Assembly: GCF_000039765.1 (NCBI RefSeq)
Contig: NC_004459.3
Coordinates: forward strand, 60,001 to 92,000
DNA: 32,000 nucleotides
DNA from: Vibrio vulnificus CMCP6
GTDB lineage: Bacteria; Pseudomonadota; Gammaproteobacteria; Enterobacterales; Vibrionaceae
Reading direction: 5' to 3'
Part shown: one piece after another, positions 1-29,810 of the stretch
Layout of the letters: each line of letters starts with the position of its first letter
Position numbering within the stretch: the first letter of the stretch is position 1
Made by a program: the position numbers and the translations under genes
The notes under the pieces: model-generated
The model's input: only the letters and a program-made list of their open reading frames with translations
The model's database searches: none
What the model was told of the DNA's origin: nothing

Positions 1-2
1 AC

Positions 3-623: not shown

Positions 624-631
624 GAGGTTCT

Positions 632-4608: not shown

Positions 4609-4617
4609 TAGAGCCAA

Positions 4618-6262: not shown

Positions 6263-6984
6263 CCCGTCAAGTGTTAGTCACAGGGGCCAGTAAAGGCATC
6301 GGCAAAGCCATCGCCATTCAATTAGCGAAAGATGGCTTTACCATCGTCGTTCACTACATGGGCGATAAGCAAGGTGCCGAGCAAACATTGGCCATGATTG
6401 AACAAAACGGTGGCAGTGGCCGTTTAATTCAGTTTGATATTAGCCATCGTCAACAATGTCGTGAGCGTATTGAAGCCGACATCGCAGAGCACGGCGCATA
6501 CTACGGCGTGGTCAATAACGCGGGTATCACCAAAGACACCGCTTTCCCAGCGATGACCGAAGCAGAATGGGATGGCGTAATTCACACCAACCTCGACAGT
6601 TTTTATAACGTCTTACACCCTTGCGTGATGCCGATGGTGCAAAAACGCAAAGGTGGACGCATTGTTACTTTGGCCTCCGTCTCCGGATTAATGGGCAATC
6701 GAGGTCAAACCAACTACGCCGCTGCCAAAGCGGGGGTGATTGGCGCAACCAAATCATTGGCTCTCGAGCTGGCGAAACGCAAAATCACCGTGAACTGTGT
6801 CGCCCCTGGGCTGATTGATACAGGCATGGTGGATGAGCATGTCAAAGAGCACGCTTTACCTCAAGTACCGCTACGCCGCATGGGTGAGCCGGAAGAAGTG
6901 GCTGGCTTAGTCAGTTATTTGATGTCTGACATTGCAGGTTATGTCACTCGCCAAGTGATTTCGGTTAATGGAGGCCTAATATGA
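6259..6984 (+). CDS. 3-oxoacyl-ACP reductase, SDR family (FabG/ApeQ-like)
   Basis: ATG at 6259 in an ATGA overlap with the upstream stop, with AGGAG upstream. Contains TGASKGIGKAIA (Rossmann fold), NNAGI and the YAAAKAG catalytic Y-x3-K. Confidence 0.9.
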   Translation: MTRQVLVTGASKGIGKAIAIQLAKDGFTIVVHYMGDKQGAEQTLAMIEQNGGSGRLIQFDISHRQQCRERIEADIAEHGAYYGVVNNAGITKDTAFPAMTEAEWDGVIHTNLDSFYNVLHPCVMPMVQKRKGGRIVTLASVSGLMGNRGQTNYAAAKAGVIGATKSLALELAKRKITVNCVAPGLIDTGMVDEHVKEHALPQVPLRRMGEPEEVAGLVSYLMSDIAGYVTRQVISVNGGLI

Positions 6985-8210
6985 ATCGCAGAGTTGTTGT
7001 CACTGGTATGTCTGGTGTCACTGCATTTGGCAATGATTGGCAAAGTGTCGAGCCCAAATTACGCGCGCTAGAAAATGCCACTCAGTTTATGGAAAATTAC
7101 CAACAGTACGAAGGGTTGAACACAAAACTTGCCGCTCCCGTGGTCGATTTTGAGCTCCCTTCGCATTACAAACGCAAGCAAGTTCGCGGTATGGGCCGCG
7201 TCTCCAAATTAGCCACCGTGGCGACTGAAAACGCGCTACGCCAAGCAGGCTTAATTGGTGAAGACGTACTAACGAATGGCCAAACTGGCATTGCTTACGG
7301 TTCATCAACTGGCTCAACTGACGCCATAGGCGCATTTGGCGTGATGCTGAACGACAAAACCACCAAAGCGATCACCGCGACGACCTACGTTCAAATGATG
7401 CCGCACACCACCGCCGTCAATGTCGGGCTCTTTTTTGGCCTGCGTGGCCGCGTTATTCCGACCAGCAGCGCATGTACATCTGGCAGCCAAGCTATTGGTT
7501 ACGCCTATGAAGCGATCAAACACGGCTATCAAACCGTTATGGTGGCAGGGGGAGCAGAAGAGCTTTGCCCAACCGAATCAGCGGTATTCGATACCTTGTT
7601 TGCGACCAGCTTGAAAAATGATCAGCCGAAAACAACGCCAAGCCCTTACGACAAAGATCGTGATGGCCTCGTGATCGGTGAAGGCGCTGGCACGCTGGTG
7701 CTAGAAGAGTACGAACACGCCAAAGCACGCGGTGCGACAATCTACGCTGAGATCATCGGCTTTGCCAGCAACTGTGACGCGGCACATGTGACTCAGCCAC
7801 AGATGGAAACCATGCAGATCTGTATGGAAATGGCCCTGCAAAACGCGGATCTACATCCAAAACACATTGGCTATGTTTCTGCGCATGGCACTGCGACAGA
7901 CCGTGGTGACATTGCCGAAAGTAACGCGACGCAAAATGCCATTGGCAAGGTGCCAATCAGTTCATTAAAGAGCTATTTTGGCCACACATTGGGCGCATGC
8001 GGTGCCATCGAGGCATGGTTGAGTATTGAGATGATGAACAGTGGCTGGTTTAGCCCAACCCTGAATCTCACTAACCTAGACCCAGATTGTGGTGATCTGG
8101 ATTACATTGCTGGTGCTGGCCGCGAGATGGATATTGATTACATGATGAGCAATAACTTTGCGTTTGGCGGCATCAATACTTCCCTCATCTTTAAACGCGT
8201 TCGCGATTAG
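6981..8210 (+). CDS. beta-ketoacyl-ACP synthase II-like (FabF/ApeR-like KS)
   Basis: ATGA overlap with the reductase. Contains SSACTSGS (Cys), AAHVTQPQ and SAHGTATDRGD (His/His), and NNFAFGGINTSL. Confidence 0.9.
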   Translation: MNRRVVVTGMSGVTAFGNDWQSVEPKLRALENATQFMENYQQYEGLNTKLAAPVVDFELPSHYKRKQVRGMGRVSKLATVATENALRQAGLIGEDVLTNGQTGIAYGSSTGSTDAIGAFGVMLNDKTTKAITATTYVQMMPHTTAVNVGLFFGLRGRVIPTSSACTSGSQAIGYAYEAIKHGYQTVMVAGGAEELCPTESAVFDTLFATSLKNDQPKTTPSPYDKDRDGLVIGEGAGTLVLEEYEHAKARGATIYAEIIGFASNCDAAHVTQPQMETMQICMEMALQNADLHPKHIGYVSAHGTATDRGDIAESNATQNAIGKVPISSLKSYFGHTLGACGAIEAWLSIEMMNSGWFSPTLNLTNLDPDCGDLDYIAGAGREMDIDYMMSNNFAFGGINTSLIFKRVRD

Positions 8211-8217
8211 CGTACTC

Positions 8218-8243
8218 AACGGCTGCTTTAGGCAGCCGTTTTT
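8218..8243 (+). terminator. intrinsic terminator ending the APE operon
   Basis: AACGGCTGC (8218-8226) pairs with GCAGCCGTT (8232-8240) across a 5-nt loop and runs into TTTTT, 8 nt after the stop codon. Confidence 0.6.
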
Positions 8244-8330
8244 GATTCCGTTCCCCTCAAAAATCACTGCTGTTTTTTCACACAAACTGTTCATTCTGTC
8301 GCCTAGCTTTTATTGTTGATAAACAAAGTG

Positions 8331-8359
8331 TTGACGAGTCACCTCCTTACCATTACAGT
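8331..8359 (+). promoter_or_regulatory. candidate sigma70 promoter of tRNA-Pro
   Basis: TTGACG (8331-8336), 17-nt spacer, TACAGT (8354-8359). The tRNA 5' end lies 10 nt downstream. Confidence 0.4.
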
Positions 8360-8368
8360 AACTGCCAT

Positions 8369-8445
8369 CGGACTGTAGCGCAGCTTGGTAGCGCACCGTC
8401 ATGGGGTGTCGGGGGTCGGAGGTTCAAATCCTCTCAGTCCGACCA
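8369..8445 (+). tRNA. tRNA-Pro (anticodon GGG)
   Basis: 77 nt folding as a cloverleaf: acceptor CGGACTG/CAGTCCG, D arm GCGC..GCGC, anticodon loop ATGGGGT (GGG at 34-36, G37), T arm GGAGG TTCAAAT CCTCT, encoded CCA. From memory, identical to E. coli proL outside positions in the acceptor stem and one D-loop base. Confidence 0.95.
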
Positions 8446-8455
8446 TACACCTAAG

Positions 8456-8486
8456 GCCCGTAATTCAATGAGTTACGGGCTTTTTT
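8456..8486 (+). terminator. intrinsic terminator downstream of tRNA-Pro
   Basis: GCCCGTAA (8457-8464) pairs with TTACGGGC (8473-8480) and is followed by T6 (8481-8486). Confidence 0.6.
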
Positions 8487-8491
8487 ACACC

Positions 8492-8521
8492 CTAAGAAAA
8501 CCGCCTCAAAACAAGGCGGTT
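8492..8521 (-). terminator. intrinsic terminator downstream of int
   Basis: On the minus strand, AACCGCC (8521-8515) pairs with GGCGGTT (8505-8499) and is followed by TTTTCTT (8498-8492). Confidence 0.5.
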
Positions 8522-8550
8522 CCAAAATGGTTCCAAAACTGGTTCCAATA
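8518..8550. repeat. three tandem direct repeats GGTTCCAA (candidate integrase arm-type sites)
   Basis: GGTTCCAAAAT (8518-8528), GGTTCCAAAACT (8529-8540) and GGTTCCAATA (8541-8550) lie between the int stop and attL/tRNA. Confidence 0.4.
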
Positions 8551-9717
8551 TTACCCCCAAATCGCCAGCTCAACAGCCGGTACCTGAACCCACTTCTCAT
8601 GGCCCTCTTTGTATATCTTGGTACTGCGAGAATCCGTGTGTGCAGCGCGTGCTTGAGCGTCGTGGCCAGCCTTATCGTACAAGTGAATACTCAGCCCTCG
8701 AATCTCGTGATACGTTGGCCGACAGTCTGCAGGCACACCTTTTTTGACCTTCACCTGGTCCCGTAACTTGGAAAAAAAGCGGCTCAGATATTTTCGGTTC
8801 ACCTGAGTGAGGTGATCACAATACTGGCTCACATCATTGCTGCGTTTTTCCGGCAGACGATGCACCACGTAAGGTGAATCAATATTGTCCTTGCTCGCTT
8901 CAATAATATTCAGCAGTGACCTTGTCACAGGGATAACAACTCGGCTTGCTTCCTTCTTTTTTACCTTACGGCGATGAATGCGCAGATACCCAAACACCTC
9001 AACACCATCTTCCAGAACTGGAGCATCGAGCATGGTGATATCCTCGTATTTCATCGCACATATCTCATTAACCGCGTGCGTTGTCTCGAGAGAGAGGTCC
9101 ATTGCAACCCTCATCCCACTGAGGAGCGATGCCCAAATCGATTTATATTCAGAGAGCGTTAAGTCGCGGCGTTGCTTCTCCTCCTTCGGCCTTACGTTTT
9201 TGCGTTTGGCCGGATTGTCGACCAATCACCGATTCATCGATGCGTAATCAAACACCTTCGACATAAACGCTATCCAGCGGTTGAAGACATTATTTGATTT
9301 ACCTGCAGCAACGGCATCGAGCACCAGGTTCACATCGTCCAAAGTGATGGACATACCCACTCTGTCACCAAGCAAGGTATCCAGCTTTTCTAAACGGCTA
9401 TCAAACATGGCCAACGTCTCTTTTGTCGGCTTTTCATCGGCCGCATATCGCGCCGATACTCGAGCAAAGAACGTAGAAAGCCGTTCAACAGACTTGCGAT
9501 GATGCGGTTTAATGAGGTCGAGATTGACCGGATGAGCGATTTCAGGGTCAACCCGATAAGTGGCGTTGTATCTTCTGGCCAGAGCGATTGCTCGGCTCTT
9601 GTCGTGGCCGAGAGATTTACAGCTGTTATCGATACGCCGAAAGACGTACCCTTTCTTACCTTTAAAATAGAGACCTTCAGGGAGGTCTCTATACTTACTA
9701 CTTCTTGGACGTGGCAC
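8551..9717 (-). pseudogene. int: lambda-type tyrosine integrase interrupted by an in-frame TGA (9226-9228)
   Basis: The N-terminus (PRPRSSKYRDLPEGLYF) parallels the lambda Int arm-binding domain. The C-terminus has HEIRGL (H-x-x-R) and AHTDSRSTKIY (His..Tyr). ORFs 9226-9723 and 8551-9225 are in the same frame, separated only by TGA (..ASMNR*LVDNPAKRK..). The likely start is GTG at 9717, 5 nt after GAGG. Confidence 0.7.
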
Positions 9718-9734
9718 GGTCACCTCAGTACATA

Positions 9735-9929
9735 TTAGTGAGAAAGCAGGTCATCCAAGAAAGGATCACCGCTCGATTTCTTCTCTTTTTCCAAATCAAC
9801 GTAATATGAACGTCCAATTCTTTTCCCTGGCAACGTGCCTAAATCGATTTCCCTACGACAGATACGCACATCTGGCGCACTGCCCTCAGTAAACCGGAGT
9901 TTTCGCCAAAGGCTGAGTTTCACCAACAT
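9735..9929 (-). CDS. xis: excisionase (lambda Xis-like)
   Basis: 64-aa ORF immediately upstream of int with an SD (GTGAGGA). The motif LSLWRK..RICRREIDLGTLPGKRIGRSYYVDL resembles the lambda Xis winged-helix pattern (recalled, not aligned). Confidence 0.65.
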   Translation of the reverse strand: MLVKLSLWRKLRFTEGSAPDVRICRREIDLGTLPGKRIGRSYYVDLEKEKKSSGDPFLDDLLSH

Positions 9930-10060
9930 AAAAGATCCTCACCCACAGACGTTTGAAAAAACCTCTGAACCTATGGAATGAAATTTACAGACTTTTTTGA
10001 ATTCAGTAACTTGCATTCAAATTGTTTATTTCTTCGCCCTCAAGTTGCCGCAAGAGGGCT

Positions 10061-10099
10061 TTAAAAACCTATGGGATGATCACTGGATTCCCATAGGTT
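10061..10099 (-). terminator. intrinsic terminator at the end of the early operon, upstream of xis-int
   Basis: Perfect 11-bp stem AACCTATGGGA (10066-10076) / TCCCATAGGTT (10089-10099). In minus-strand orientation it is followed by TTTTTAAA (10065-10058). Confidence 0.6.
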
Positions 10100-10129
10100 T
10101 AGTTGGAGCCATGAGCATAGTTTTGGCGC

Positions 10130-10645
10130 CTATGCCGCTTTCGAGTTAACCTCCGAGCCGATATTCTGAAGCACTACGGCCACCCAACTGAGCTCTGTTT
10201 TCAAACGATCACACTCTCGAGTAATGGCGAGAACGGACAGTTGTTCCTGTTGAGCCATTTTCTCTGCGAGCTGCTCTTGAGCACTGTCCAATGCTTGAGT
10301 AAGTTGAACTTCCAACTGCTCAAAATAGTACGCGTTAGCTAGGAACAAATGGGCCAAGGTTTCATCCTGGACACGTGAGATGGAAGGCTCAACATCCAAC
10401 GCGTCCGTCAGTTTCTGTTTACCCATTTCTGTTAGCTGATAGAGCTTCTTATCGGGCTTTCCAGATTGCAGAACCACTTCCAGAGACAAAAAACCGAATG
10501 TTTCAAGTTTAGCCAGCTCACGATAAATTTGCTGATGCGACGCTTTCCAACCTTTTGCTGGTAAACGTTTTGCTAAGTCATAACCAGTCATTTGCTGCTG
10601 GCCAACTTCAGCCATCAAGACAAGTTGCAGATTTGATATGTGCAT
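10130..10645 (-). CDS. PadR-family transcriptional regulator, AphA-like
   Basis: N-terminal winged HTH with TGYDLAKRL..WKASHQQIYRELAKLE..GKPDKKLYQLTEMG, then a helical C-terminal domain. The pattern closely parallels my recollection of Vibrio AphA (GYDITKEF..FWKASHQQVYRELNKM..GKPDRKVYSIT..RDEF). SD AGAGGG. Confidence 0.8.
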   Translation of the reverse strand: MHISNLQLVLMAEVGQQQMTGYDLAKRLPAKGWKASHQQIYRELAKLETFGFLSLEVVLQSGKPDKKLYQLTEMGKQKLTDALDVEPSISRVQDETLAHLFLANAYYFEQLEVQLTQALDSAQEQLAEKMAQQEQLSVLAITRECDRLKTELSWVAVVLQNIGSEVNSKAA

Positions 10646-10656
10646 AATATTGCCCT

Positions 10657-11277
10657 CTAATTAATGCGTTTGTTGGTTTCAAAAGTAGCGACTTCGAGTT
10701 TGGATACCAAACGTCCGGTTTCCTTCAGCTCGCTTGGTAAGTCGTTAACTCGGTTTTGGTTCATTCTCAAGTTCACAGACTGAGAGACACATTCAAGATT
10801 GGATAACTTGCAGTTCAACTTATCTCCATCAATAAAGCGCAAGATCATCCCCTTGGGGACAGGACCATGCTCTTGCTCCCAAATGACATAGTGTTTAGGG
10901 CGATAGCGAGTCTTCGCGCCGGTATACGGGTTCTGTTCCGCTACGTTGATAAGAATGTATCCATCTTTTGAACAAATACGTTCATGGCCAATAGGCTTTT
11001 TGTTGTGTGGTACCTGACCTGATTGAAAGCTTCCGGTGTTTGGTTTACACACTCCTTTGGTACCTGTATTCCATGGCAACTCACCTTTTTCAAAACAACC
11101 CGTTCGACCAGTTAACCAGCCATAACGCTTGCAGTATGCAGAGATAGCTTTCTGAGTCTGTTCAAGACCGAACCTAGAGTTGAACTGTTCAGTAAGTTCT
11201 TTCCGAGGAAGAAATGCATGGTCCTTTAAAAAAGTCTTCTGCTCTTCCGTGTATTGATGGCAGACTCCTTTAGGCAT
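10657..11277 (-). CDS. HNH homing-type endonuclease
   Basis: C-terminal RPKHYVIWEQEHGPVPKGMILRFIDGDKLNCKLSNLECVS is a typical phage HNH_3 motif. SD GGAGGA. Confidence 0.8.
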   Translation of the reverse strand: MPKGVCHQYTEEQKTFLKDHAFLPRKELTEQFNSRFGLEQTQKAISAYCKRYGWLTGRTGCFEKGELPWNTGTKGVCKPNTGSFQSGQVPHNKKPIGHERICSKDGYILINVAEQNPYTGAKTRYRPKHYVIWEQEHGPVPKGMILRFIDGDKLNCKLSNLECVSQSVNLRMNQNRVNDLPSELKETGRLVSKLEVATFETNKRIN

Positions 11278-11506
11278 GTCGCTTGTCCTCCATCATCGGA
11301 ACCTTATACTTTCCTGCGTACTCGGCTTTAAACTTCGCCCCTTCGAGAACAAGCTGAGCATTGTTGACGATCTGATTAGATACAGCAGTGATGGCTTTTG
11401 AACGAGCGACTTCCATCTCCAGTTCCGGACCTTTTAAGGATTCATCACCCAAACGTTCAATTTGAGCAAACAAATGGTCATTCAAATCCGTTAATTGATT
11501 CTTCAT
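11270..11506 (-). CDS. hypothetical phage protein (helical, 78 aa)
   Basis: SD GAAGGTAA. Its 3' end overlaps the HNH gene start by 8 nt (translational coupling). Protein-like composition. Confidence 0.6.
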   Translation of the reverse strand: MKNQLTDLNDHLFAQIERLGDESLKGPELEMEVARSKAITAVSNQIVNNAQLVLEGAKFKAEYAGKYKVPMMEDKRHA

Positions 11507-11539
11507 GGTCTTTACCTTCTACGGTCTCTACAACTTGTA

Positions 11540-11791
11540 CTAACAATGATGATTAAGCACTCGAACAGTGACATCGAGGTGCAGAGAGGAAATGCCTAGC
11601 TTTTCAGCCAAGCGCTTACGATTGCCGGCATCGAGATTGATGGCGCTGGCCAACGTCTCGAACTTATTCTCATGGCTACTCATATCGTGCTTTTTACCGT
11701 TGATATAAGGTTGATCAAGTCCTGCCTCTTCATAGACTTCAACGATCATTTTCGCGACATGGTTTAGGGGTTTTTGCTTAGATTTAGGCAT
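11540..11791 (-). CDS. hypothetical phage protein (83 aa, possible C-terminal HTH)
   Basis: Same-strand operon context, 8-nt overlap with the upstream gene, segment NRKRLAEKLGISSLHL. Confidence 0.55.
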   Translation of the reverse strand: MPKSKQKPLNHVAKMIVEVYEEAGLDQPYINGKKHDMSSHENKFETLASAINLDAGNRKRLAEKLGISSLHLDVTVRVLNHHC

Positions 11792-12038
11792 CTTTCTTTA
11801 CCTCTTGGCTGAGTTGTTCAAACTCTTCTTCGTTACAAATCAGGAAGCCACCAAAGCCAGTTTCTCTATGGAGTACTCCCTCGGCGATAATACGTCCTTC
11901 CAAAACCTCACATGCATGCTCAACAGCATCATTGAAGCTAGGAAAAGACCCAAGCTCGAGATTAATGACTTCGTTCGTTTTAGAACTTACCGAAACCGCA
12001 CCATTTTCATTTAAGTAAGCTGCAATGTAGTTATTCAA
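11784..12038 (-). CDS. hypothetical phage protein
   Basis: The ORF is open to 12149, but that would overlap the DUF3850-like gene by 119 nt. An in-frame TTG at 12038 lies 4 nt after a strong AAGGAGGA and overlaps the upstream stop (TTGAATAA). The start is uncertain. Confidence 0.45.
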   Translation of the reverse strand: MNNYIAAYLNENGAVSVSSKTNEVINLELGSFPSFNDAVEHACEVLEGRIIAEGVLHRETGFGGFLICNEEEFEQLSQEVKKDA

Positions 12039-12270
12039 TGAGTCCTCCTTCGATCCAATCAAATGAGAAAACGACATAGCCATCTTGCTGTGCGTAATCA
12101 GTGATGTACTTAATCCGGATAGTGAGATAGCGTTTTCCGTTGGTTTCAATCAGCGTCACTCGGTCACCTACTTTGAAATCACGGTCGTTCTTGCGAATTT
12201 CAAAGGTTTTGTCGCCAGCGATAATGGCTTCTAGGTGCTCGGGTTTAATCTTGAGTTGATGGTATGCCAT
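12031..12270 (-). CDS. DUF3850/ASCH-like small protein
   Basis: HQLKIKPEHLEAIIAGDKTFEIRKNDRDFKVGDRVTL matches the DUF3850 (ASCH/PUA-like) pattern as I recall it. Confidence 0.65.
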   Translation of the reverse strand: MAYHQLKIKPEHLEAIIAGDKTFEIRKNDRDFKVGDRVTLIETNGKRYLTIRIKYITDYAQQDGYVVFSFDWIEGGLIE

Positions 12271-12273
12271 GGC

Positions 12274-12837
12274 TCATTCCTTAACCTTTTCGGCTAAGCG
12301 TTGGTAAATGGCTGAAACATACTTAGCCTGGTGAACTGCATCAGATAGGGCGTCATGGCGAACACCTTCAAAAGGCATGTCACGCTTAGGATCAAAACCA
12401 AGTAGGTTTTTTCCTAGGTCAACCATCGTTCGAACATCACGTTCATTCCAGAACTGCCAAGGTACAAACTGCTCACCTAAGCACTGGATAATCGTGTTTT
12501 TCAGAATTACACAGTCAAATGATGAGCCATTGCCCCAAACTAGCGGTTGCCTTGAACCACTGTTAACAAACTCTCGAAATTCATGCAGAGAAATATTGAT
12601 ATTTTGTGCTTCTGAACTATTCAATACCGCTCGGGCATCACTGCTTTGCTTCATCCACCAAAGCACTGTACTGGCATCAATACATCCACATTCTTGAGAG
12701 CTTTCTAGAGAAATAATACGGGAGAATTTTTCTCCGATTTCTCCGGTTGAAGGCTCGAAAAAACAAGCACCAATAGCGACGATCGCTGCATTGCTGCTAT
12801 TCCCCATTGTCTCTAAGTCAATCATTAGGTTTTTCAT
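12274..12837 (-). CDS. DEDDh 3'-5' exonuclease (DnaQ/RNase T-like)
   Basis: Exo motifs MIDLETMG (D-x-E), WGNGSSFD (D) and HDALSDAVHQA (H-x4-D). Confidence 0.8.
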   Translation of the reverse strand: MKNLMIDLETMGNSSNAAIVAIGACFFEPSTGEIGEKFSRIISLESSQECGCIDASTVLWWMKQSSDARAVLNSSEAQNINISLHEFREFVNSGSRQPLVWGNGSSFDCVILKNTIIQCLGEQFVPWQFWNERDVRTMVDLGKNLLGFDPKRDMPFEGVRHDALSDAVHQAKYVSAIYQRLAEKVKE

Positions 12838-12848
12838 TAGTCATATCC

Positions 12849-16476: not shown

Positions 16477-16692
16477 CTAGTAGAACTGCGTTTGAAAAAT
16501 AGAAACTCTGCGGTCTTTACTCACCAACATCGGCGCCTCGCCAACCAATTTCACAATCACGTTGGCGCCATTGTCCTTACACCACTCGACAATCGACGCG
16601 TTATGACGATTCCCCTCAAAACTGACCACATGGCCACGGCAAATGTGCTCGGCCGAGATATGCTGCAGACGCGGCTGAGTTAGCGAAAACAT
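16477..16692 (-). CDS. hypothetical phage protein (71 aa)
   Basis: SD GGGAGG 7 nt upstream of the ATG. Overlaps the recombinase stop by 13 nt. Confidence 0.5.
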   Translation of the reverse strand: MFSLTQPRLQHISAEHICRGHVVSFEGNRHNASIVEWCKDNGANVIVKLVGEAPMLVSKDRRVSIFQTQFY

Positions 16693-17384
16693 GTGCTGGC
16701 CTCCCGCATAGCTGACGACAATGATTCACGATCCGGCGTGGTATACACCGAGGTAGTCGCAATGTTGGAATGACCAAGCACCGCCTGAACACGGCGAAGC
16801 GCATCCGGTGATGTGGTGCGTTCCAAATAGCGCTTAGCCCAACTGTGGCGCAGCCAGTGTGGTGTCCCTTCCGGCACATTGGCCAAACGGCACCAAGTCG
16901 AAAAGCGAGATTGAAACGATCGGCGACTCATCGCCTGACGGTTACGGCTGAGAAAAAGCGGACGCTCTAAACGAGGGGTATCCCACTCAATGCCTTGGCT
17001 CATTTCGACATGAATTTTCAGCAACTGCTTGAGCGCATGAATGGCGGATTTGTTGAGAGCAATCGGGTGTTTTTTCTGGTTCTTGGCGTTTTCACTGCGG
17101 TAAATCAGATAGCCTTCTTCAAGGCTTTGCTCCGCTTCACCTACCGTTAAACCGAGCATTGGCAGGTTAAAACGCTTGGCTTTATCGGCATCGGGGCCAG
17201 CCAGCACACCGAGGCGAACGGCGGTTTCGCGCATCAGCAGCATCCAGTAATAATCACGCTGTGCATAAATGCCGTAAGTCTGCTTAACCGTGTTAAACAA
17301 CTGCTTCTCTTCCTGCTCAGTAAAGTAGTGAAGAAAGAACTGAGTCGATGATTGGTTTTGAGAGTGTGAAATTAGGGTTGTCAT
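16680..17384 (-). CDS. tyrosine recombinase, catalytic domain only (Xer/phage-integrase family, 234 aa)
   Basis: Carries the full catalytic set: Arg in RETAVRLG, HWLRHSWA (H-x-x-R), LGHSNIATTSVYT (His..Tyr). Only about 40 aa precede the catalytic domain, so there is no SAM-like core-binding domain. SD AGGAGG. Confidence 0.8.
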   Translation of the reverse strand: MTTLISHSQNQSSTQFFLHYFTEQEEKQLFNTVKQTYGIYAQRDYYWMLLMRETAVRLGVLAGPDADKAKRFNLPMLGLTVGEAEQSLEEGYLIYRSENAKNQKKHPIALNKSAIHALKQLLKIHVEMSQGIEWDTPRLERPLFLSRNRQAMSRRSFQSRFSTWCRLANVPEGTPHWLRHSWAKRYLERTTSPDALRRVQAVLGHSNIATTSVYTTPDRESLSSAMREASTCFR

Positions 17385-18408: not shown

Positions 18409-19215
18409 ATGGATCTTTCTTTTGATGAGCGTCTAAATTTCGTTCTTAAAGATAGAAAACAAACTCCATGGGGAAAGAGTTTGGGGTTTACTGGCGCTTC
18501 GATATCTCACATTTTTTCTGGCGGCAGAATTCCTGGCCCTGAGTTCCTCCAAGCCATCCGACGTGCCGAAAACGTTAACCTGAACTGGCTGCTGACGGGT
18601 GAAGGTGCGCCTTATATCGTTGAGTACTACCAATCTGCTGACGCTCTATCCGACTACGTCTGTGCCATGCTCCATGAAGAAGAGTGGGTGGTACATGTCT
18701 GCTCATACCGTGGAATTGCCTGCGTGGTGTTCACGCAACCAGGGCAATACGAGTTCAAAGGAAAATGGATTGATTACCGTATCGTCCACGTTGTGGTTGG
18801 CCCAGGTGATGAGGTGTTAACCAATCTGCTGCATGATTACCACAAAGGCGGTGGGCACATCTTCGTACCAGAATTGACCGAGGAAGAACGTGAAACTGTT
18901 ATCCAAGGCCAAGTCGGTACTTACCTGATGTTTGAACAAATGAACCCGATGCTAAACACCATACGAGTAGAAACTCACATAACTGAAATTGAATTTACAG
19001 GTGGTGAACGCACAGAGAAGCCGGTGGATATCACCATCATGCGTGCCGTCGTTCGTCTGGTAGACGATTGCGAGCACACGCTAGGAACATCGCTCACCAG
19101 CGACCAACGAGCAAGAGTGATCACTGCTGTGTACCGTCAGGCGGAACGCCTCAAACTGACTGAAGAAGAGATACAAGCCACCATAGAAACATCCTTCGAT
19201 GTATTAAGTGACTGA
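18409..19215 (+). CDS. CI-type prophage repressor (Phage_CI_repr-type N-terminal HTH; C-terminal domain of unknown type)
   Basis: ATG at 18409 follows GAGGAAGG. FDERLNFVLKDRKQTPWGKSLGFTGASISHIFSGGRIPGPEFLQAIRRAENVNLNWLLTGEG is the 186-CI-like HTH pattern. No S24 peptidase Ser/Lys motifs were recognised in the remaining ~190 aa. Confidence 0.75.
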   Translation: MDLSFDERLNFVLKDRKQTPWGKSLGFTGASISHIFSGGRIPGPEFLQAIRRAENVNLNWLLTGEGAPYIVEYYQSADALSDYVCAMLHEEEWVVHVCSYRGIACVVFTQPGQYEFKGKWIDYRIVHVVVGPGDEVLTNLLHDYHKGGGHIFVPELTEEERETVIQGQVGTYLMFEQMNPMLNTIRVETHITEIEFTGGERTEKPVDITIMRAVVRLVDDCEHTLGTSLTSDQRARVITAVYRQAERLKLTEEEIQATIETSFDVLSD

Positions 19216-19259: not shown

Positions 19260-19295
19260 CGCCAGAGCCAACACTTGTTGCTCTGGCGTTTTTTT
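19260..19295 (+). terminator. intrinsic terminator after the repressor gene
   Basis: CGCCAGAGC (19260-19268) pairs with GCTCTGGCG (19280-19288) and is followed by T7 (19289-19295). Confidence 0.7.
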
Positions 19296-19486
19296 ATTGA
19301 ATGACCTAACCATTTGCGTCCTGATTTATGTTTTTCTCTTTTGCCGTACAGTTTACTGATTTTTGCAACGTAGATTGCAGTGCTATCGCTCACATAGCGA
19401 AACTGTAGACACTGACTTAAATATCAGAGACGGATTGTCTCCCTTCACCTTGCGGTGTTTTTTTTCCCTGTATGATGCGCAGCGAA

Positions 19487-19798
19487 ATGAAGAGCCAAAG
19501 ATTAAAACAAGCGAGAAAGGCAGCGGGGTTATCCAGGGAGCAGGTTGCTAAGGCCATGCACAAATCTCCGCATACCATTAAATCCTGGGAAACCACCTCA
19601 CGTCAGCCAAGAACGCTACGTGAGGTTGAACGCTTGTGTTCGATTTTGGGGATTACAGTGAGCTGGTATTTAACGGGCCAGCCTCCGGTGAAACCAATTA
19701 TGCCCAGTGAACGAGAGCAGGAACTGCTAGCCCTGTTTTCAGGGCTAAGCGATGAACAGCAAAGTGCGGTGTTGGAGTTGATTAAGGTGATGGGGTAG
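19487..19798 (+). CDS. XRE-family HTH transcriptional regulator
   Basis: MKSQRLKQARKAAGLSREQVAKAMHKSPHTIKSWE is a canonical XRE HTH. Alternative ATGs lie at 19472 and 19475, and none has a clear SD. Confidence 0.65.
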   Translation: MKSQRLKQARKAAGLSREQVAKAMHKSPHTIKSWETTSRQPRTLREVERLCSILGITVSWYLTGQPPVKPIMPSEREQELLALFSGLSDEQQSAVLELIKVMG

Positions 19799-21095
19799 AG
19801 ACCGGAGCCTTAGCCTCTAATTCTGGCGTCTGTTCTAGGCTTGATGACTTTGCTTTCAGTTTGTCGAGTTCAAGATTTATTTTTTCTAGCTCGTTATTTT
19901 TCCGCTGCAATAACTCTTCGTATGAGGCTCTTTGAATTTCCAACTCTTTATCTTGATACAGACTGTAAACAGTTAAAGCCACGCCAATGACCGTTGCAAC
20001 GGCCGCAATGAAGGAAATAATGAACGTCCACCAAGAAAATTTCTTCGCTGCATCACTAGATTTTTTGGTCTCTTCCGCCGTTTCGCGTTGAACATTAGTT
20101 TGCTCTTGAATGTACGAGTTGTTCTCAATACTGACATCTATAAGCGTATCCAATCGTTCGTTGGTTCTATCAACAGCTGTTGGACCGACTGTATATGCAA
20201 GGTCTGACAATGTAGGAAGTTCCAAATGAGACTCAGAGGAGATAATTGGCTTAATATGCTCAGCTTTTCCAACTTGATTCGCTGCTAATACAGCGTCATT
20301 TATGCTTTTTAGGTTGGCAGGCATAATATCGTGAATAGCTTTCAAGTGTGGCGGCAATGAAGCAAAGTACTCGATATTTTTAACTGCCGATAGAGCTGGA
20401 TTATCTTGGGATAGGAAGCTTTGAATATCACTAGTTGGGGAGTTTGGAATAATAGACTTCACGTAGTCACTCCACGTATCGCGAGCAACACTCCCTTGAG
20501 TTGCTAATCTATGCATCCACTCCTGCTCTGGCGAACTCTGCATGATATTTTTAATGGTATCATCAACCAGATAGGTACTCGATTTAATAGTTTTAAGCTG
20601 TTCCTCTAAACTCTTCCCTAATATGTTTAGGTCTTGGTACTGCTTGCCTATTTGATTAGAAAAGACTGATTCAGCATAGGTCTTCGCTCGAGAAACAGTA
20701 TCTTTATGCTGTTTCACGTGCCGTTTATGAAGAGCTTCAATTGCGTTCATCTCATTCCCGCTCGTTTTCTCCTCTCCCTTTTTCAGAATTAAGCTTGCAA
20801 TATTTTCTAGACTGCTGCGGCTCAGTTTAGCGCAGAGTTCTTCGTCTAAAACATAGCTATCAGGTCTTTGTTTATCTTCTGACAATGTATCTATTGGGTA
20901 GCAGGTAAACCGAGCCAATAACCGAAGATATTCTTCCCCAGACAGCCCCTCAATGTCACCTTTAAAAGATTTCATTAGGTCTAAATTAGCGCGAACAACA
21001 TAATTGAAAACCGCTAGCTTACCAATTTCTGTGTCCACCTCGCCTAAATAAGGTTTGAAAACTTTAAATCCTATTGCATGTAGCTTTTCTGACAT
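19782..21095 (-). CDS. 437-aa protein of unknown function with one C-proximal TM helix followed by a coiled coil; AT-rich cargo gene
   Basis: Long ORF with ATG at 21095, 8 nt after AAGGTGA. Hydrophobic segment FSWWTFIISFIAAVATVIGVALTVYSLY (DNA about 19956-20039), then heptad-like QDKELEIQRASYEELLQRKNNELEKINLELDKLKAK. No family recognised. Confidence 0.65.
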   Translation of the reverse strand: MSEKLHAIGFKVFKPYLGEVDTEIGKLAVFNYVVRANLDLMKSFKGDIEGLSGEEYLRLLARFTCYPIDTLSEDKQRPDSYVLDEELCAKLSRSSLENIASLILKKGEEKTSGNEMNAIEALHKRHVKQHKDTVSRAKTYAESVFSNQIGKQYQDLNILGKSLEEQLKTIKSSTYLVDDTIKNIMQSSPEQEWMHRLATQGSVARDTWSDYVKSIIPNSPTSDIQSFLSQDNPALSAVKNIEYFASLPPHLKAIHDIMPANLKSINDAVLAANQVGKAEHIKPIISSESHLELPTLSDLAYTVGPTAVDRTNERLDTLIDVSIENNSYIQEQTNVQRETAEETKKSSDAAKKFSWWTFIISFIAAVATVIGVALTVYSLYQDKELEIQRASYEELLQRKNNELEKINLELDKLKAKSSSLEQTPELEAKAPVSTPSP

Positions 21096-21167
21096 CGGCT
21101 CATTCACCTTCACTTAAGTAATGAAACTATATTATTACTAGACGCCAGCGCTACACAACAAGATGCA

Positions 21168-22175
21168 TTACTTTAAAGCTGGAATAAGTCCGATCTCGTT
21201 TTTCGGAGCCACAAAGCGGCCGCTGAGTAAGTGGCCGTTTGCATCTAACGTTTCGGTGACGCTCTCACACATCCACTCGCCGTTAAACTGGGAACGGTGA
21301 TGACCACTGAGCGAAATATTGCGCTCGGCAATCACGCCAGGAATGAACGGCAACTCATCTATCTCCAAGGTGTACTCTGCTCGTTTTAGATTGTGCAGCT
21401 CGGTTTCGGCGGCAGAACGCGCGGTCGCTTCATCTTGAAACAGGGTATTCAGGGTTTTGGCTTTACCGGAGCTTTCCCCCACTCGCACGGTTTTGGTTTC
21501 GGCTAAATCGGTATCTCGCCACTTGGCCACAACCGCATCAAACTTGGCCGCACCAGATAGGGTAATCGTCGCTTGCACTTGGTCGGTAAGCCGAACCGCA
21601 ATGGCCGAGAGCGTTTTACCACTCACGCTTTGGTTGTCGCCTTTGGGGAAAAACACCAGTTTGTCTTGGGCCACTTTCATAGTGGCGTTGTTTTCTGCCG
21701 CCAGTTCGGTGAGTAAGTCGGCGTCACTCTGGCCTGTCTGCAAACGATGGACGATTTCCACCGACGCATAGGCATCGGCCACCGCTGGTTGATAGCCGCA
21801 TCGAGAAGCAACGGTCTCAACCAAAGATTTGAGCGTGGTGTTTTCCCAAGTATGATCCCGTTGGTTTTTGAACTCGCCGGATAGGTTGGCCGCATCCCCC
21901 GAGAGGGTGATGGTTTGCTCTGGGCTGCTCAGTTTCACCGAGTTCACCACAAAGGTGCCTCGGTTGGTGAGTGCCTTATTGTTCTCGCCCGTTGAGATCT
22001 GCAGTTTGGCTTCAGTCTTGGGAAAGGCAATTTTTCCATCGTCCACAAGTACCAGTGTGAAGCTGTCTGAGTTTGTGCCGGCTTCATCGGTAATGCTCAA
22101 ACTGATAAAGCGCGGCTTGATGACATCGGTGATGTCTTTGCCATCGGCGACGATTTTAAACGCGGCTAATCCCAC
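21168..22175 (-). CDS. gpD: P2 gpD-like tail/late protein
   Basis: N-terminus FKIVADGKDITDVIKPRFISLSITDEAGTNSDSFTLVL is the gpD family pattern. It is the last gene of the tail operon, as in P2. Confidence 0.85.
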   Translation of the reverse strand: MGLAAFKIVADGKDITDVIKPRFISLSITDEAGTNSDSFTLVLVDDGKIAFPKTEAKLQISTGENNKALTNRGTFVVNSVKLSSPEQTITLSGDAANLSGEFKNQRDHTWENTTLKSLVETVASRCGYQPAVADAYASVEIVHRLQTGQSDADLLTELAAENNATMKVAQDKLVFFPKGDNQSVSGKTLSAIAVRLTDQVQATITLSGAAKFDAVVAKWRDTDLAETKTVRVGESSGKAKTLNTLFQDEATARSAAETELHNLKRAEYTLEIDELPFIPGVIAERNISLSGHHRSQFNGEWMCESVTETLDANGHLLSGRFVAPKNEIGLIPALK

Positions 22176-24907: not shown

Positions 24908-25350
24908 CTACTCATCATCGTCGTCAGATTGTGCGTCGATTAGCTTTCTGCAGTCGTCAAGCCAGTCGCTGAGCTCTCCGACGCTGAGGCTTCTGAGCTC
25001 GGTGAGTGAGACTCCATTGCTGAATCGGGAAAGAGCAAGGCACATCTGGCGGCATACTGAGGCAGTGGCAATAGGAAACAGTCGTAACCCTTTCCCAACT
25101 GGGTATAGTCGTAGTACTCCAGTTGGCCGATAAACTCTCGAGTGGTACCTGTTAGCGCCGCAAACAGATGCATCTCTGCTTCTGCTTCATTCATGTGGCT
25201 TGAACCATCGGCCAGAACTCGAGTCGCGTGGTGTTGAGACAGAATGACATCGTTCGTCGTTGGAGGTCGCATCGTCAGTTGAGTCAACTCCTTACCATCA
25301 AACTCTTTGGCCACTTGCAGCACAATGTTAATCGGTAGATATTTGTTCAT
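24908..25350 (-). CDS. tail assembly chaperone E+E' fusion made by a programmed -1 frameshift (predicted)
   Basis: After slipping at G GGA AAG, the -1 frame reads GLRLFPIATASVCRQMCLALSRFSNGVSLTELRSLSVGELSDWLDDCRKLIDAQSDDDDE and stops at TAG 24908-24910, 9 nt before the tape-measure ATG. The predicted ~147 aa is similar to the size I recall for P2 E+E'. Confidence 0.55.
24940..25350 (-). CDS. gpE: tail assembly chaperone gpE-like (zero-frame product)
   Basis: Lies between the tube and tape-measure genes and contains the slippery heptamer at codons 85-87. Unusually, the zero frame stays open 49 codons past the slip site. Confidence 0.7.
   Translation of the reverse strand: MNKYLPINIVLQVAKEFDGKELTQLTMRPPTTNDVILSQHHATRVLADGSSHMNEAEAEMHLFAALTGTTREFIGQLEYYDYTQLGKGYDCFLLPLPQYAARCALLFPDSAMESHSPSSEASASESSATGLTTAES
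25090..25096 (-). other. -1 ribosomal frameshift slippery heptamer G GGA AAG
   Basis: The minus-strand sequence GGGAAAG is in X XXY YYZ register with the gpE frame (G is the third base of codon 85; GGA and AAG are codons 86 and 87). The heptamer is the same as at the lambda G/GT site. Confidence 0.6.
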
Positions 25351-27479: not shown

Positions 27480-29810
27480 TTAGCTAAGTTCCCTAACATT
27501 CCAATAATACGAACTCCCATCTTCAGATGTAGATTTTATAGCCAACACTATCGAACCAACAGAAGGATTTATAGTTCCACCTTTAACAATAACTCTACCT
27601 TGACCGCTCCCATTAGTAAAAGATGTAAACTCATCCTCAATCCTTATTGATATCATCTTATCTTTAATATCATTATCTTTGATGTTATTAATATTTGTAT
27701 TGGTTGTATTTGCTGTTTTAAATGTCTTTGATGAGTTTTTTAATATTGGTGATGTATTGTTTACATCAAGCGTCAGAGTTGTACTGTAATTAATTTTCCC
27801 AACAACCACATCATCACCTAATAATGGTCGCTGTGTCTTATCCTTCGCATAAACATCAAATAATGTATTATTTTTAATTACTCCAGTACCTATTTTAACT
27901 TCACTATCGAGTATTATATCTTCCGAATAAACTCCATAGTTATTCAAACTTATATCAACAGTTCCTATAATGACAGATAAAACCGCCCCACCACCTAATT
28001 GCTCAACGAATAGTCCCTTGTCATTTTCCGATAGTTTTGCTACACCAATAGTGTTCCGCTTAGTTGATTTATTTGAATCTGATGAATATAAATACAGACC
28101 TGACGCGCCATTTCCCTTACTATTAATTACCGCCGTTGTGCTATCATTATTGTTAATAAATGCCCAACCGTGCACAGCATTATTGTCAGCATCTATGGTA
28201 CCAAATGTCATGTTGTGCGTTTCTTCAGCTTTTCCTCCATTAACACCGTTCTCGTTTGTTTTTACTAAAGTAACAGTACCGTTCATGCACGTTCTTTCAA
28301 AAAGTGCTCCATTGCTGGCATTATTAAATCCTATGGCAGACAATAAGCTGAAGTTGTCCACATTGGACATTCTCAGTCCATGATTAAATTCTGAGCCATC
28401 GCCGCGCATCTCAACACATGACCAGTTTCTAGTTGGCTTACCCCCTAACAAATCGCCATCCACAGAGACGCCTATTTGTCGCGATCCTTTCGAAAATAGC
28501 CTTCCAGCATTAAAATCGGTACATGCATAAAACCCGATCCCCCCTGTATGCGCATCCAATGCAGTCACATTCCCCAAAGAGAATTCTTCACATTCTTGTA
28601 GACCTAACAAGAAAAAGTCGGCAAATGTTCCTGATGACAATCCTTCGTTTTCCTTTTTGTTTCCATCTAGCAACACATCACCCAATAAAGAAAACTTACT
28701 GCACCCATGCATCTTAATTAAAGGCTTATTTTGATTTGCAGCAAGTTTAAGCTTAGCATTCTGGTGAAAAAGAATATTAAACCCAGACAAACCAACAACA
28801 GCCGTATAATTAATCCCTGATATCTCATCGTCTATTTCTAAAATTGCTCCTGACGCAGCTGAATACTGAATAGCTGACAATAAGTCACCTGGCCAACCTC
28901 GAAAATTAAAACCATTTATTCTATCTTTTCTTTTCGGTCTCAAATCACTCACCGAGCCATCTGCCAACACCTGAGCAATCTTACAGACAAAGTGCTTGAC
29001 GCCATTTGCATCGGTGTAATCATCTTTCTCTTCGGCTGTCACCACTAAATCGAACAGGGTAACTTGCTCGCCTGTTGGTGTGCCTTTGCGGTGCGCGTCT
29101 ACGTAGATGAACGATGGTTTGTTAGGTACTTGAACATTGCGGTCAAATTCGAGTGTGACACGATTGCCCGACACATAACCGGCACCCGCTTTGATGTTGA
29201 ATGCACTCACTTGAGGCGTGACCAAGAAGCCGTCTTCGATAAACCAATCTTTGCCGTTCTGGTCGATGATGGCTTGGGCGACTCGCTCATCGGATTTCGA
29301 AACTTGTGTATTCACGTAGTTTCGACTCGCCGTAATCACATTCGGATTAATCTGAACAATCGGCTCTGCACTGGTGATCACAAACGTCATTTCAAGTGAC
29401 ACTGGATTGTTCAACTGACCATTATTGACAGGGCTAGGAACATAGATACGAGCGCAGTTTCCAATCGCATGAAAATATTCTTGACCGTTAAAAGTCGCGA
29501 CGGCAGCAAATTCTCGAATAACGACATCATGAATATCATCAGGTAACAGAGCTTCTACTGTCAGAATCGGGACGGAGTCCGGTGTTGCTTGCAAAACATC
29601 AACTGAGTTGACCGGAAGACGATACAGCTCATTGACCAGTGACTGGGATTTTCTGTCGGGCTGTACATAGGTGTCGTTGGCATCACCGAATGCAATGTGA
29701 GTGAACTCAACGGGCTTTTTCAGCATTTTGCCGTTTTGCTCAGCAGACTCACCTAATACCGTTAAAATCGATCCATATTGCTGTTCGCTTTCAGGAACTA
29801 AATCTGCCAT
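27480..29810 (-). CDS. gpH: tail fibre/tailspike: gpH-like N-terminal anchor fused to a parallel beta-helix-like C-terminal domain
   Basis: The N-terminus (FTHIAFGDANDTYVQPDRKSQSLVNELYR) is the P2 H/tail-collar pattern. From about residue 300 there are N/G/S/T-rich ~22-25-aa repeats typical of pectate-lyase-fold tailspikes. Confidence 0.85.
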   Translation of the reverse strand: MADLVPESEQQYGSILTVLGESAEQNGKMLKKPVEFTHIAFGDANDTYVQPDRKSQSLVNELYRLPVNSVDVLQATPDSVPILTVEALLPDDIHDVVIREFAAVATFNGQEYFHAIGNCARIYVPSPVNNGQLNNPVSLEMTFVITSAEPIVQINPNVITASRNYVNTQVSKSDERVAQAIIDQNGKDWFIEDGFLVTPQVSAFNIKAGAGYVSGNRVTLEFDRNVQVPNKPSFIYVDAHRKGTPTGEQVTLFDLVVTAEEKDDYTDANGVKHFVCKIAQVLADGSVSDLRPKRKDRINGFNFRGWPGDLLSAIQYSAASGAILEIDDEISGINYTAVVGLSGFNILFHQNAKLKLAANQNKPLIKMHGCSKFSLLGDVLLDGNKKENEGLSSGTFADFFLLGLQECEEFSLGNVTALDAHTGGIGFYACTDFNAGRLFSKGSRQIGVSVDGDLLGGKPTRNWSCVEMRGDGSEFNHGLRMSNVDNFSLLSAIGFNNASNGALFERTCMNGTVTLVKTNENGVNGGKAEETHNMTFGTIDADNNAVHGWAFINNNDSTTAVINSKGNGASGLYLYSSDSNKSTKRNTIGVAKLSENDKGLFVEQLGGGAVLSVIIGTVDISLNNYGVYSEDIILDSEVKIGTGVIKNNTLFDVYAKDKTQRPLLGDDVVVGKINYSTTLTLDVNNTSPILKNSSKTFKTANTTNTNINNIKDNDIKDKMISIRIEDEFTSFTNGSGQGRVIVKGGTINPSVGSIVLAIKSTSEDGSSYYWNVRELS

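Follow-up and report, generated by a model that had tools for sequence, protein, structure and literature searches.

Is the AT-rich segment between the repressor gene and gpD of a Vibrio prophage a site of anti-phage defense? The question is raised by a 32,000-nucleotide stretch of the Vibrio vulnificus CMCP6 genome (contig NC_004459.3, positions 60,001 to 92,000 of the forward strand), which we call the window throughout this text. An exact protein match (AAO08623.1) points to the same strain. The window holds a P2-like prophage whose tail genes, including gpD, lie on the minus strand. The slot next to gpD contains a gene for a 437-amino-acid (437-aa) membrane-anchored protein and a small gene for an XRE-family regulator. 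To the left of the slot are a cI-like repressor gene, a small gene in the Cox/Apl position, the CII (CP76) gene, and the primase gene. An earlier reading of the sequence (below, the original prediction) regarded the locus as a candidate exclusion or defense module. We use the label FAM for the 437-aa protein and its homologs.

The answer that we favor is that the 437-aa gene is a mobile single-gene anti-phage defense cassette, and that the interval from gene D to the immunity region, in which it lies, is a recombination hotspot. Judging by the genomic contexts described below, an anti-phage function of any kind is probable. The whole explanation, i.e., a mobile defense cassette acting through a sensor-effector mechanism, we would accept on a slight balance of probability.

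The slot between gpD and the repressor gene

We compared the slot in approximately 16 distinct related prophages of the Vibrio/Photobacterium P2-like lineage. The relatives were fetched with gpD and FAM members and mapped with profiles of gpD, FAM, XRE, cI, Cox, and CII; individual loci are cited as L001, L002, etc. Both gpD (PF05954 is on record for the ortholog in L001) and cI are kept, while the interval between them spans from 169 bp to about 3.6 kb and has at least eight different contents.

The slot is empty in L019 and L028 and holds XRE only in L018. FAM is accompanied by XRE in the window, L001, L002 (identical with L020), and L026, stands alone in L014, and is also found in L016, where the contig ends inside the gene. 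In L005 the content consists of 2TM-TIR (8e-50) and 1TM-TIR (2.5e-61) components, a 309-aa protein, FAM, and XRE. The other relatives carry PycC (1.2e-134) and PycTM (5.7e-23) with XRE (L003, identical with L021), a KAP NTPase (L017, L022, and L023; PF07693 1.4e-38, PDC-S20 1.6e-83, PifA 2e-14), a 301-aa protein with multiple transmembrane (TM) helices together with 315-aa and 123-aa proteins, with no PADLOC match (L024, 7021-9262), a 252-aa lipoprotein (L025, 7165-7923), or a 113-aa protein (L027).

The most direct comparison is with L018, whose backbone is 97% identical to the window (blastn) and from which FAM is exactly absent (Table 1). In L017, L018, and L019 alike, homology with the window breaks off at base 21200, some ten codons short of the end of gpD. 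Based on the exact indel relative to L018, we rejected the possibility that FAM is a core phage gene.

The time of exchange can be judged from synonymous divergence (dS) between the window and the V. cholerae phage L001. The dS values are 0.26 for FAM, 0.47 for XRE, 1.6 for gpD, and 3.7 for cI. The low values for FAM and XRE relative to gpD and cI indicate that the V. vulnificus and V. cholerae phages exchanged the cassette region at a later time than the genes flanking it.

The interval between gpD and cI is a recombination hotspot that holds bona fide defense systems. The original prediction had proposed a variable cargo slot with defense genes at a fixed position, and the relatives bear this out: the content differs among them down to an exact 1405-bp indel, and Pycsar, 2TM-1TM-TIR components, and a KAP NTPase resembling PDC-S20 and PifA are all found there. 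The same prediction would have failed if the gene were present in all related phages; it is absent from several of them, including the 97%-identical L018.

A prophage defense hotspot with swappable cargo is an already known kind of feature. P2-like phages and P4 satellites have defense hotspots at old/tin near cos and at Z/fun (Rousset et al. 2022, PMC9122126; PMC13586616). The slot described here resembles them in its fixed position between conserved genes and in swapped content enriched in anti-phage systems. In addition, the 2TM-1TM-TIR system, components of which are present in L005, was described from such P2 and P4 sites. It differs in its location, between gene D and the repressor gene in Vibrio and Photobacterium, whereas the enterobacterial P2 sites are at cos, at Z/fun, or beside the integrase gene. 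It also differs in that the cargo here belongs to no described defense family (PADLOC). The hotspot can be useful for mining further systems in marine pathogens.

Some slot contents deserve a separate record. The Pycsar pair of L003 (8075-10055) is complete and lies between gpD and XRE in a prophage of Photobacterium salinisoli. The KAP-family P-loop NTPase (543-552 aa) takes the place of FAM as well as XRE, with its gene in the opposite orientation (L017 7044-8702, L022, L023). In L005 (5991-9203) the 2TM and 1TM components are followed by the 309-aa TM/coiled-coil protein and, after a 3-bp gap, by FAM instead of a TIR protein. The system may be a chimera, with FAM standing in for TIR or complementing it. 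The lipoprotein of L025 has a GQSNMVGM motif which by eye is like those of SGNH/sialate-O-acetylesterase enzymes, and it could be a receptor-modifying conversion gene.

The FAM family and its genomic contexts

The 437-aa protein has no match in Pfam (the best is SseC with 14.8 bits against a cut-off of 30.2), its sole reported match in NCBIfam is far under the cut-off, and none of the families of PADLOC-DB v2.0.0 is hit at E ≤ 1. Word-indexed searches returned only alleles from V. vulnificus and V. cholerae with at least 86% identity, all annotated as hypothetical. A megablast search of the 17-23 kb part of the window against phages gave no match. With an exhaustive search by profile, 122 representatives (clusters at 50% identity) were recovered at E ≤ 1e-3, 38 of them at ≤ 1e-10; the family comprises at least 122 clusters. 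Thus the original prediction was right that the protein matches no family of Pfam, NCBIfam, or PADLOC, and it missed that the protein belongs to a broad, though unnamed, one.

All ten chromosomal contexts with readable flanks (L006, L008, L010/L011, L013, L015, L030, L032, L036, L037, and L040) place FAM beside or inside restriction-modification (R-M) or other defense genes, in a raw count without a background rate. Judged by these neighborhoods, the association with defense islands is strong but qualitative. In Mariprofundus ferrooxydans (L010/L011) the gene order is HsdM-HsdS-TIR-FAM-Abi_2-GmrSD-HsdR. FAM adjoins a type I R-M system in L013, has an HsdS gene directly downstream in L036, and is itself directly downstream of a ResIII helicase and a methyltransferase in L040; L032 has a type IIG R-M enzyme. 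The neighbors in the other contexts are DarT/NADAR, a methyltransferase with Vsr, and SIR2_2 (L015), an Old-like ATPase (1e-60) and a patatin (L008/L009), HEPN_RiboL-PSP, GmrSD_N, and Mrr_cat+nSTAND3 (L030; PDC-S73 2e-157), AbiH (L037; 5.5e-39), and a GIIM-domain gene (L006).

FAM was also found in a Mu-like prophage, in the slot between gemA and mor (L012), and, through the family member P0044, in the accessory region of a Pseudoalteromonas MOBH plasmid (L039). Searches with tblastn gave no hits for the 437-aa protein in GenBank phages or PLSDB plasmids, nor for the family member P0014 in phages. With the A9 sub-alignment, just nine metagenome loci were recovered and no match in viral contigs.

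In M. ferrooxydans PV-1 (L010 9084-11203) a 303-aa TIR-domain protein is encoded 5 bp upstream of FAM within the type I R-M operon, and TIR and FAM may form a two-gene unit in some lineages. This gap and the 3-bp gap in L005 indicate that FAM can be co-transcribed with other defense genes.

These contexts bear on the possibility that FAM has no role in defense and is instead a lysogenic-conversion or host-fitness factor (envelope, stress) or an accessory lysis or morphogenesis protein. Such a role would agree with the position of the gene, which is co-directional with the late tail operon, lies directly downstream of it, and has no predicted promoter of its own. It would also agree with the weak PHROG matches (a holin and phrog_6664) of the segment that comprises the TM helix and the coiled coil, and with the apparently non-defense lipoprotein in the slot of L025. 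However, FAM is missing from otherwise intact phages with 96-97% identity, and hence has no core virion or lysis function. In addition, it is embedded in R-M operons outside phages and shares its slot with Pycsar, 2TM-1TM-TIR components, and a KAP NTPase. We regard the absence of any defense role as quite improbable.

Table 1. Features of the prophage in window coordinates
Feature	Position	Strand	Remarks
FAM cassette	19795..21199		1405 bp; present in the window, 35 bp instead in L018
FAM coding sequence	19782..21095	-	437 aa from ATG at 21095 (annotated form)
FAM, alternative start	19782..21113	-	GTG at 21113, giving 443 aa
FAM N-terminal domain (residues 11-108)	20772..21065	-	conserved; beta-hairpin and helices, predicted cytoplasmic; pLDDT 83-98
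FAM middle insert (residues 191-305)	20181..20525	-	115 aa against a family median of 30 aa; low-confidence model
FAM membrane-adjacent helix (residues 306-354)	20034..20180	-	conserved; motif RLDxLIxxS...NxxQxxIAxEIKxSGD....SKxN
FAM single TM helix (residues 355-377)	19965..20033	-	hydropathy
FAM C-terminal tail (residues 378-437)	19785..19964	-	coiled-coil helix to 421, then Pro/Ser-rich; predicted periplasmic
Spacer between gpD stop codon and FAM ATG	21096..21167	-	72 bp; 54 bp if the GTG start is used
gpD, tail/baseplate hub	21168..22175	-	phrog_52 1.9e-83; conserved right flank of the slot
XRE-family helix-turn-helix gene	19472..19798	+	108 aa; DicA/RstR-like
XRE upstream region	19297..19471	+	inverted repeat TACAGTTT (19347-19354) -N45- AAACTGTA (19400-19407)
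cI-like repressor	18409..19215	+	probable start M36 of a 303-aa open reading frame; conserved left flank of the slot
Terminator-like hairpin after the cI-like repressor	19260..19296	+	9-bp perfect stem, 11-nt loop, T-run
Rv2179c-like 3'-5' exoribonuclease	12274-12837	-	in the low-GC stretch between primase and integrase
HNH_3 endonuclease	10657-11277	-	in the same stretch
PadR regulator	10130-10645	-	in the same stretch, which also has genes without assignment

Composition, selection, and upstream region of the FAM gene

The GC content is 0.406 for the cassette, 0.526 for gpD, and 0.502 for XRE. At third codon positions it is 0.379 in the FAM open reading frame (ORF) and 0.595 in gpD. The compositionally foreign part is therefore FAM alone: this claim of the original prediction holds for the FAM gene and does not extend to XRE, the GC content of which is like that of the backbone.

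The ratio of nonsynonymous to synonymous divergence (dN/dS) of FAM between V. vulnificus and the V. cholerae allele is 0.25, which points to purifying selection. A spurious ORF was rejected on the basis of this ratio and of the conservation across the family.

FAM and XRE are convergent, with the last FAM codons antisense to the 3' end of XRE. The 17-bp overlap (19782-19798) was noted at the outset and is confirmed, as is the lack of a terminator-like site between the two genes in a consensus scan. The original prediction also gave a 54-bp spacer between gpD and FAM. This length is correct for the GTG start and wrong for the 437-aa form; two starts had been mixed.

The spacer contains an imperfect 13-nt inverted repeat (21116-21128/21161-21173). 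No sigma-70-like promoter was predicted in it by the consensus scan, so that the supposed expression in the lysogen gains no support. Nothing convincing in the way of a conserved promoter at the gpD boundary was seen in the alignment and the consensus scan. Two similar 13-mers are TACAGTTTACTGA upstream of XRE (19347-19359, plus strand) and TATAGTTTCATTA upstream of FAM (21119-21131, minus strand). We rejected the shared motif (TAYAGTTT...) as evidence of co-regulation because it had been drawn up after the fact from these same two sites. Upstream of FAM the motif is kept only in the close relative L001.

The XRE gene

The XRE protein matches the Pfam families HTH_31 (1.1e-13, 51.7 bits, cut-off 27) and HTH_3 (35.6 bits, cut-off 23). 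Its matches to the DicA and RstR subfamily models are under the cut-offs, and there are weak matches to defense-linked helix-turn-helix regulators, e.g., capH and the N-terminal part of RmrA. Across the lineage, the identity of XRE amounts to 65-88%, in parallel to gpD. The inverted repeat upstream of it (Table 1) is kept in L018 and partly in L001 and L026, and may be an operator.

The original prediction treated XRE as a dedicated regulator of FAM. In a stronger form, the two genes would be an XRE-regulated two-gene module or a toxin-antitoxin-like addiction pair, with XRE as the repressor or antitoxin. The convergent 3' overlap is indeed retained wherever the two genes co-occur (the window, L001, L002, L005, and L026), both genes have low dS values relative to L001, and the weak matches of XRE to capH and RmrA would fit such a module. 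However, XRE lies outside the 1405-bp indel and has a backbone-like GC content. L018 has XRE as the sole slot content, and L003 has it together with Pycsar; conversely, no XRE accompanies FAM in L014 or in any non-P2 context. The convergent layout is also atypical for toxin-antitoxin pairs, since type II pairs are co-directional operons. We therefore find a dedicated module very improbable, and the claim of a dedicated regulator is not supported. XRE is best described as a neighboring accessory phage regulator which is often co-inherited with FAM and is no obligate partner of it. It may influence whichever genes occupy the slot, e.g., through convergent transcription.

Architecture of the protein

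Most representatives of the family have 330-450 aa and match in two conserved blocks. Conservation, topology, and the deep structural model were based on an alignment of 102 sequences. Among these 102 members, no recurring family was found in Pfam, just scattered weak matches, and the matches in PADLOC were only scattered ones of the coiled-coil type, with 1-2 members each. The nearly invariant residues are G25, P78, L91, E116, R124, F145, S146, G160, Q336, and E342. The N-terminal domain and the membrane-adjacent helix are among the more conserved parts of the family, and the helical region of residues 113-190 and the TM helix are conserved as well. The middle insert is specific to the lineage of the Vibrio protein. 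Among close alleles, the insert, the TM helix, and the tail vary more than the N-terminal domain and the helical regions.

Exactly one TM helix is predicted by hydropathy in 100 of the 102 members, and most of the chain precedes it. The number of lysine and arginine residues before this helix exceeds the number after it in 74 members and is lower in eight. In the metagenomic member P0117 (801 aa), the tail beyond the TM helix is expanded by TSP3_bac repeats (6e-39) and also gives a weak PG_binding_1 match. These bacterial calcium-binding repeats and the weak match to a peptidoglycan-binding domain suggest that some members reach or bind the cell wall. The number of TM helices, the bias of charged residues, and the repeats of P0117 together indicate an N-in/C-out topology, from which we infer that the N-terminal part of about 355 aa would be cytoplasmic and the coiled coil periplasmic. 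About 80% of the 437-aa protein is predicted to be cytoplasmic. The architecture given in the original prediction (a soluble N-terminal part, one TM helix, and a heptad-rich tail with a Pro/Ser end) is thus reproduced, with the helix at about 356-377 and, by hydropathy analysis, a tail of 61 aa, which is predicted to be helical to residue 421.

Predicted structure and possible targets

AlphaFold2 (AF2) gave a model of mean predicted local distance difference test (pLDDT) score 77 with the 102-sequence alignment. The deep alignment is needed: with eight close alleles alone the score was 39.6 and the model unusable. A continuous helix of residues 307-421 runs through the membrane (pLDDT 85-98). 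Full-length Foldseek matches are generic long-helix ones. Structure prediction (AF2 and Foldseek) did not assign a virion or lysis function to the protein, an outcome that would have spoken against the original prediction.

For the N-terminal domain, the best domain-sized Foldseek matches are phage tail assembly chaperones (TACs), with weak E-values of 0.04-0.45. The match to HK97 2ob9 has E 0.45 and a TM-score of 0.46, and several TAC entries of BFVD have probabilities of 0.8-0.95 with E 0.04-0.4. Profile comparison adds no support: hhalign of the N-terminal domain gave a probability of 0.5% (E 0.12) against the HK97 gp13 profile and of 0.3% against the phage's own TAC. No TAC family was found among Pfam profiles at E ≤ 5, and a PDB profile search likewise found nothing. 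Thus the predicted resemblance is a lead rather than a finding.

TACs proper (HK97 gp13, PDB 2ob9, PF06222; the lambda gpG type) can be compared only with the N-terminal ~100 residues, which are modeled with high confidence and for which they are the best domain-sized structural matches. They differ in having no sequence or profile similarity to FAM, which is not in the tail operon, has no frameshift partner, and is fused to a membrane anchor. The TAC of this lineage (PF10109) is placed between the tube and tape-measure genes, and that of the phage itself is a separate gene at 24940-25350. The FAM gene is downstream of gpD and not between the tail tube and tape-measure genes.

If the resemblance is real, FAM could block assembly in the way of Tab: the N-terminal domain would titrate the tape measure or tail tube of the invader, no tails would be made, and the anchor would only localize or restrain the protein. 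Tab of the Pseudomonas phage JBD26 is a precedent of a prophage protein that stops tail assembly through the tape-measure protein (PMC10884400). Compared by description only, Tab and FAM are both single prophage proteins, protective in the case of Tab, and a tape-measure or tail-assembly target would fit the TAC-like N-terminal domain. Unlike FAM, however, Tab is soluble, is encoded on the opposite strand between terminase genes, and is paired with an anti-Tab gene in the late operon, for which there is no evident counterpart here. FAM is anchored in the membrane and occurs also outside phages. The fold match is weak and comes with no profile homology, and the strongly conserved membrane-adjacent and TM helices argue for a functional membrane part, not a tether. 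An assembly blocker of this kind is, in our opinion, highly improbable.

The same features have to be weighed for superinfection exclusion at the envelope, i.e., an inner-membrane protein that blocks entry of the incoming genome so that the infected cell survives. During injection, tape-measure or ejection proteins might be bound by the periplasmic coiled coil or by the chaperone-like domain. In favor of exclusion are the location of the gene in a prophage, beside the immunity region, and the predicted placement of the protein, anchored in the inner membrane with its coiled coil in the periplasm. The weak TAC-like fold would moreover suggest an affinity for tape-measure proteins. There are literature precedents, both tape-measure-linked ones, as far as they are presented through references 27 and 28 of PMC10884400, and inner-membrane Sie proteins (PMC10883804). 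P22 SieA (PMC10883804), HK97 gp15, and T4 Imm, compared by description only, share with FAM the encoding by prophages, a predicted inner-membrane location, a non-enzymatic nature, and positions near immunity genes or morons.

However, these proteins are small or polytopic, phage-specific, and act on genome entry, whereas FAM has one TM helix and is mostly cytoplasmic. The cytoplasm, where about 80% of the protein is predicted to reside, is the wrong side to intercept injection. The periplasmic tail is the least conserved part of the family and can be as short as 40 aa. Furthermore, members are common in chromosomal R-M and defense islands without a nearby prophage, which is atypical for phage-specific exclusion proteins. 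Exclusion at the envelope is therefore unlikely, though it deserves some weight.

Proposed mechanism

The presence of the family in chromosomal R-M islands and the largely cytoplasmic mass of the protein make us favor a sensor-effector over a phage-specific block of entry. According to this proposal, the cytoplasmic part would sense a phage component, and the fold resemblance makes a tail-assembly protein such as the tape measure the lead candidate for the trigger. The signal would be relayed through the conserved membrane-adjacent helix, and the oligomeric TM/coiled-coil part would then compromise the inner membrane, resulting in abortive infection. If FAM does act in defense, we give a sensor joined to a membrane effector an even chance of being the mechanism.

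Several observations weigh against this reading. The association with defense islands is correlative and comes from a raw count, and the resemblance of the modeled fold to TACs is below significance and has no profile support. No conserved catalytic motif or known effector domain was found in FAM, and pore-forming effectors do not usually have just one TM helix. A conserved N-terminal domain is no less compatible with an effector, or with the binding of a partner, than with a sensor that evolves fast. Finally, no sigma-70-like promoter was predicted in the spacer upstream of the gene and, given its position downstream of the tail genes, FAM might be expressed late rather than in the lysogen.

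Among described defense systems, Pycsar PycTM and the 2TM/4TM effectors of CBASS are comparable as inner-membrane proteins that act in defense without an enzymatic domain, and Pycsar even shares the slot (L003). They differ from FAM in needing a partner cyclase and a nucleotide-binding domain; FAM is a single gene and does not match their models. Kiwa KwaA is a membrane-embedded sentinel with an inner-membrane anchor and can be grouped with Zorya ZorAB. Zorya ZorAB (PMC11946911) is also anchored in the inner membrane, has long helical or coiled-coil extensions, and is thought to couple envelope events to a cytoplasmic response. However, Zorya and Kiwa are multi-protein complexes of known families, while FAM is a single protein with no homology to them (PADLOC models).

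A literature search by FAM protein accessions found nothing. The slot and the family are not described in Pfam, NCBIfam, PADLOC v2, the function labels of PHROGs, GenBank phage annotation, or the literature searched. The 437-aa gene is a good, directly testable candidate for a phage-defense gene, one of many such candidates, and its family is nominated here as a defense gene family without a Pfam, NCBIfam, or PADLOC model. A prophage of the L018 type is a natural near-isogenic knockout of a single 1.3-kb gene, and the fold hint points to one class of triggers, i.e., tail-assembly proteins. Should the mechanism be true, it would be a new way to couple recognition of phage structural proteins to the membrane.

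A bolder version of the same proposal, which we consider a long shot, is that FAM proteins are widespread single-protein immune sentinels. A captured TAC fold tethered to the inner membrane would bait tape-measure or tail-assembly proteins and switch the coiled-coil oligomer to a membrane-breaching state, with the insert of residues 191-305 tuning specificity.

Other features of the prophage

The terminator-like hairpin that follows the cI-like repressor gene (Table 1) was missed by the consensus terminator scan because its loop is longer than 8 nt.

The host chromosome occupies positions 1-8210 of the window, with plus-strand genes for an MMPL protein, two beta-ketoacyl synthases, and a protein like short-chain dehydrogenases/reductases and enoyl-ACP reductases. 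The prophage end and its attachment site must be at about 8.2-8.55 kb (window 8211-8550). The integrase gene of the prophage (8551-9723, minus strand) has an in-frame stop codon at 9226-9228 ('...FDYASMNR*LVDNPAKR'), and the integrase of the V. cholerae relative L001 is intact, with 388 aa. The CMCP6 prophage may be incapable of excision, which could make it a cryptic or domesticated one.

A second stretch of lower GC content (0.42-0.47) extends from primase to integrase (9600-12840, minus strand); its assigned genes are listed in Table 1. It corresponds to the 'integrase-primase' accessory hotspot of P2 (PMC13586616).

In addition to the true integrase, a short 234-aa protein of the tyrosine recombinase family is encoded next to CII (16680-17384, minus strand). 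It is kept in all relatives, with 233-234 aa in L001 and L014 and 224 aa in L002 and L003.

The lowest GC content of the window (0.305-0.415) is at 27601-28800, within the ORF of a 776-aa tail fiber (27480-29810, minus strand). This is probably a swapped segment that determines host range.

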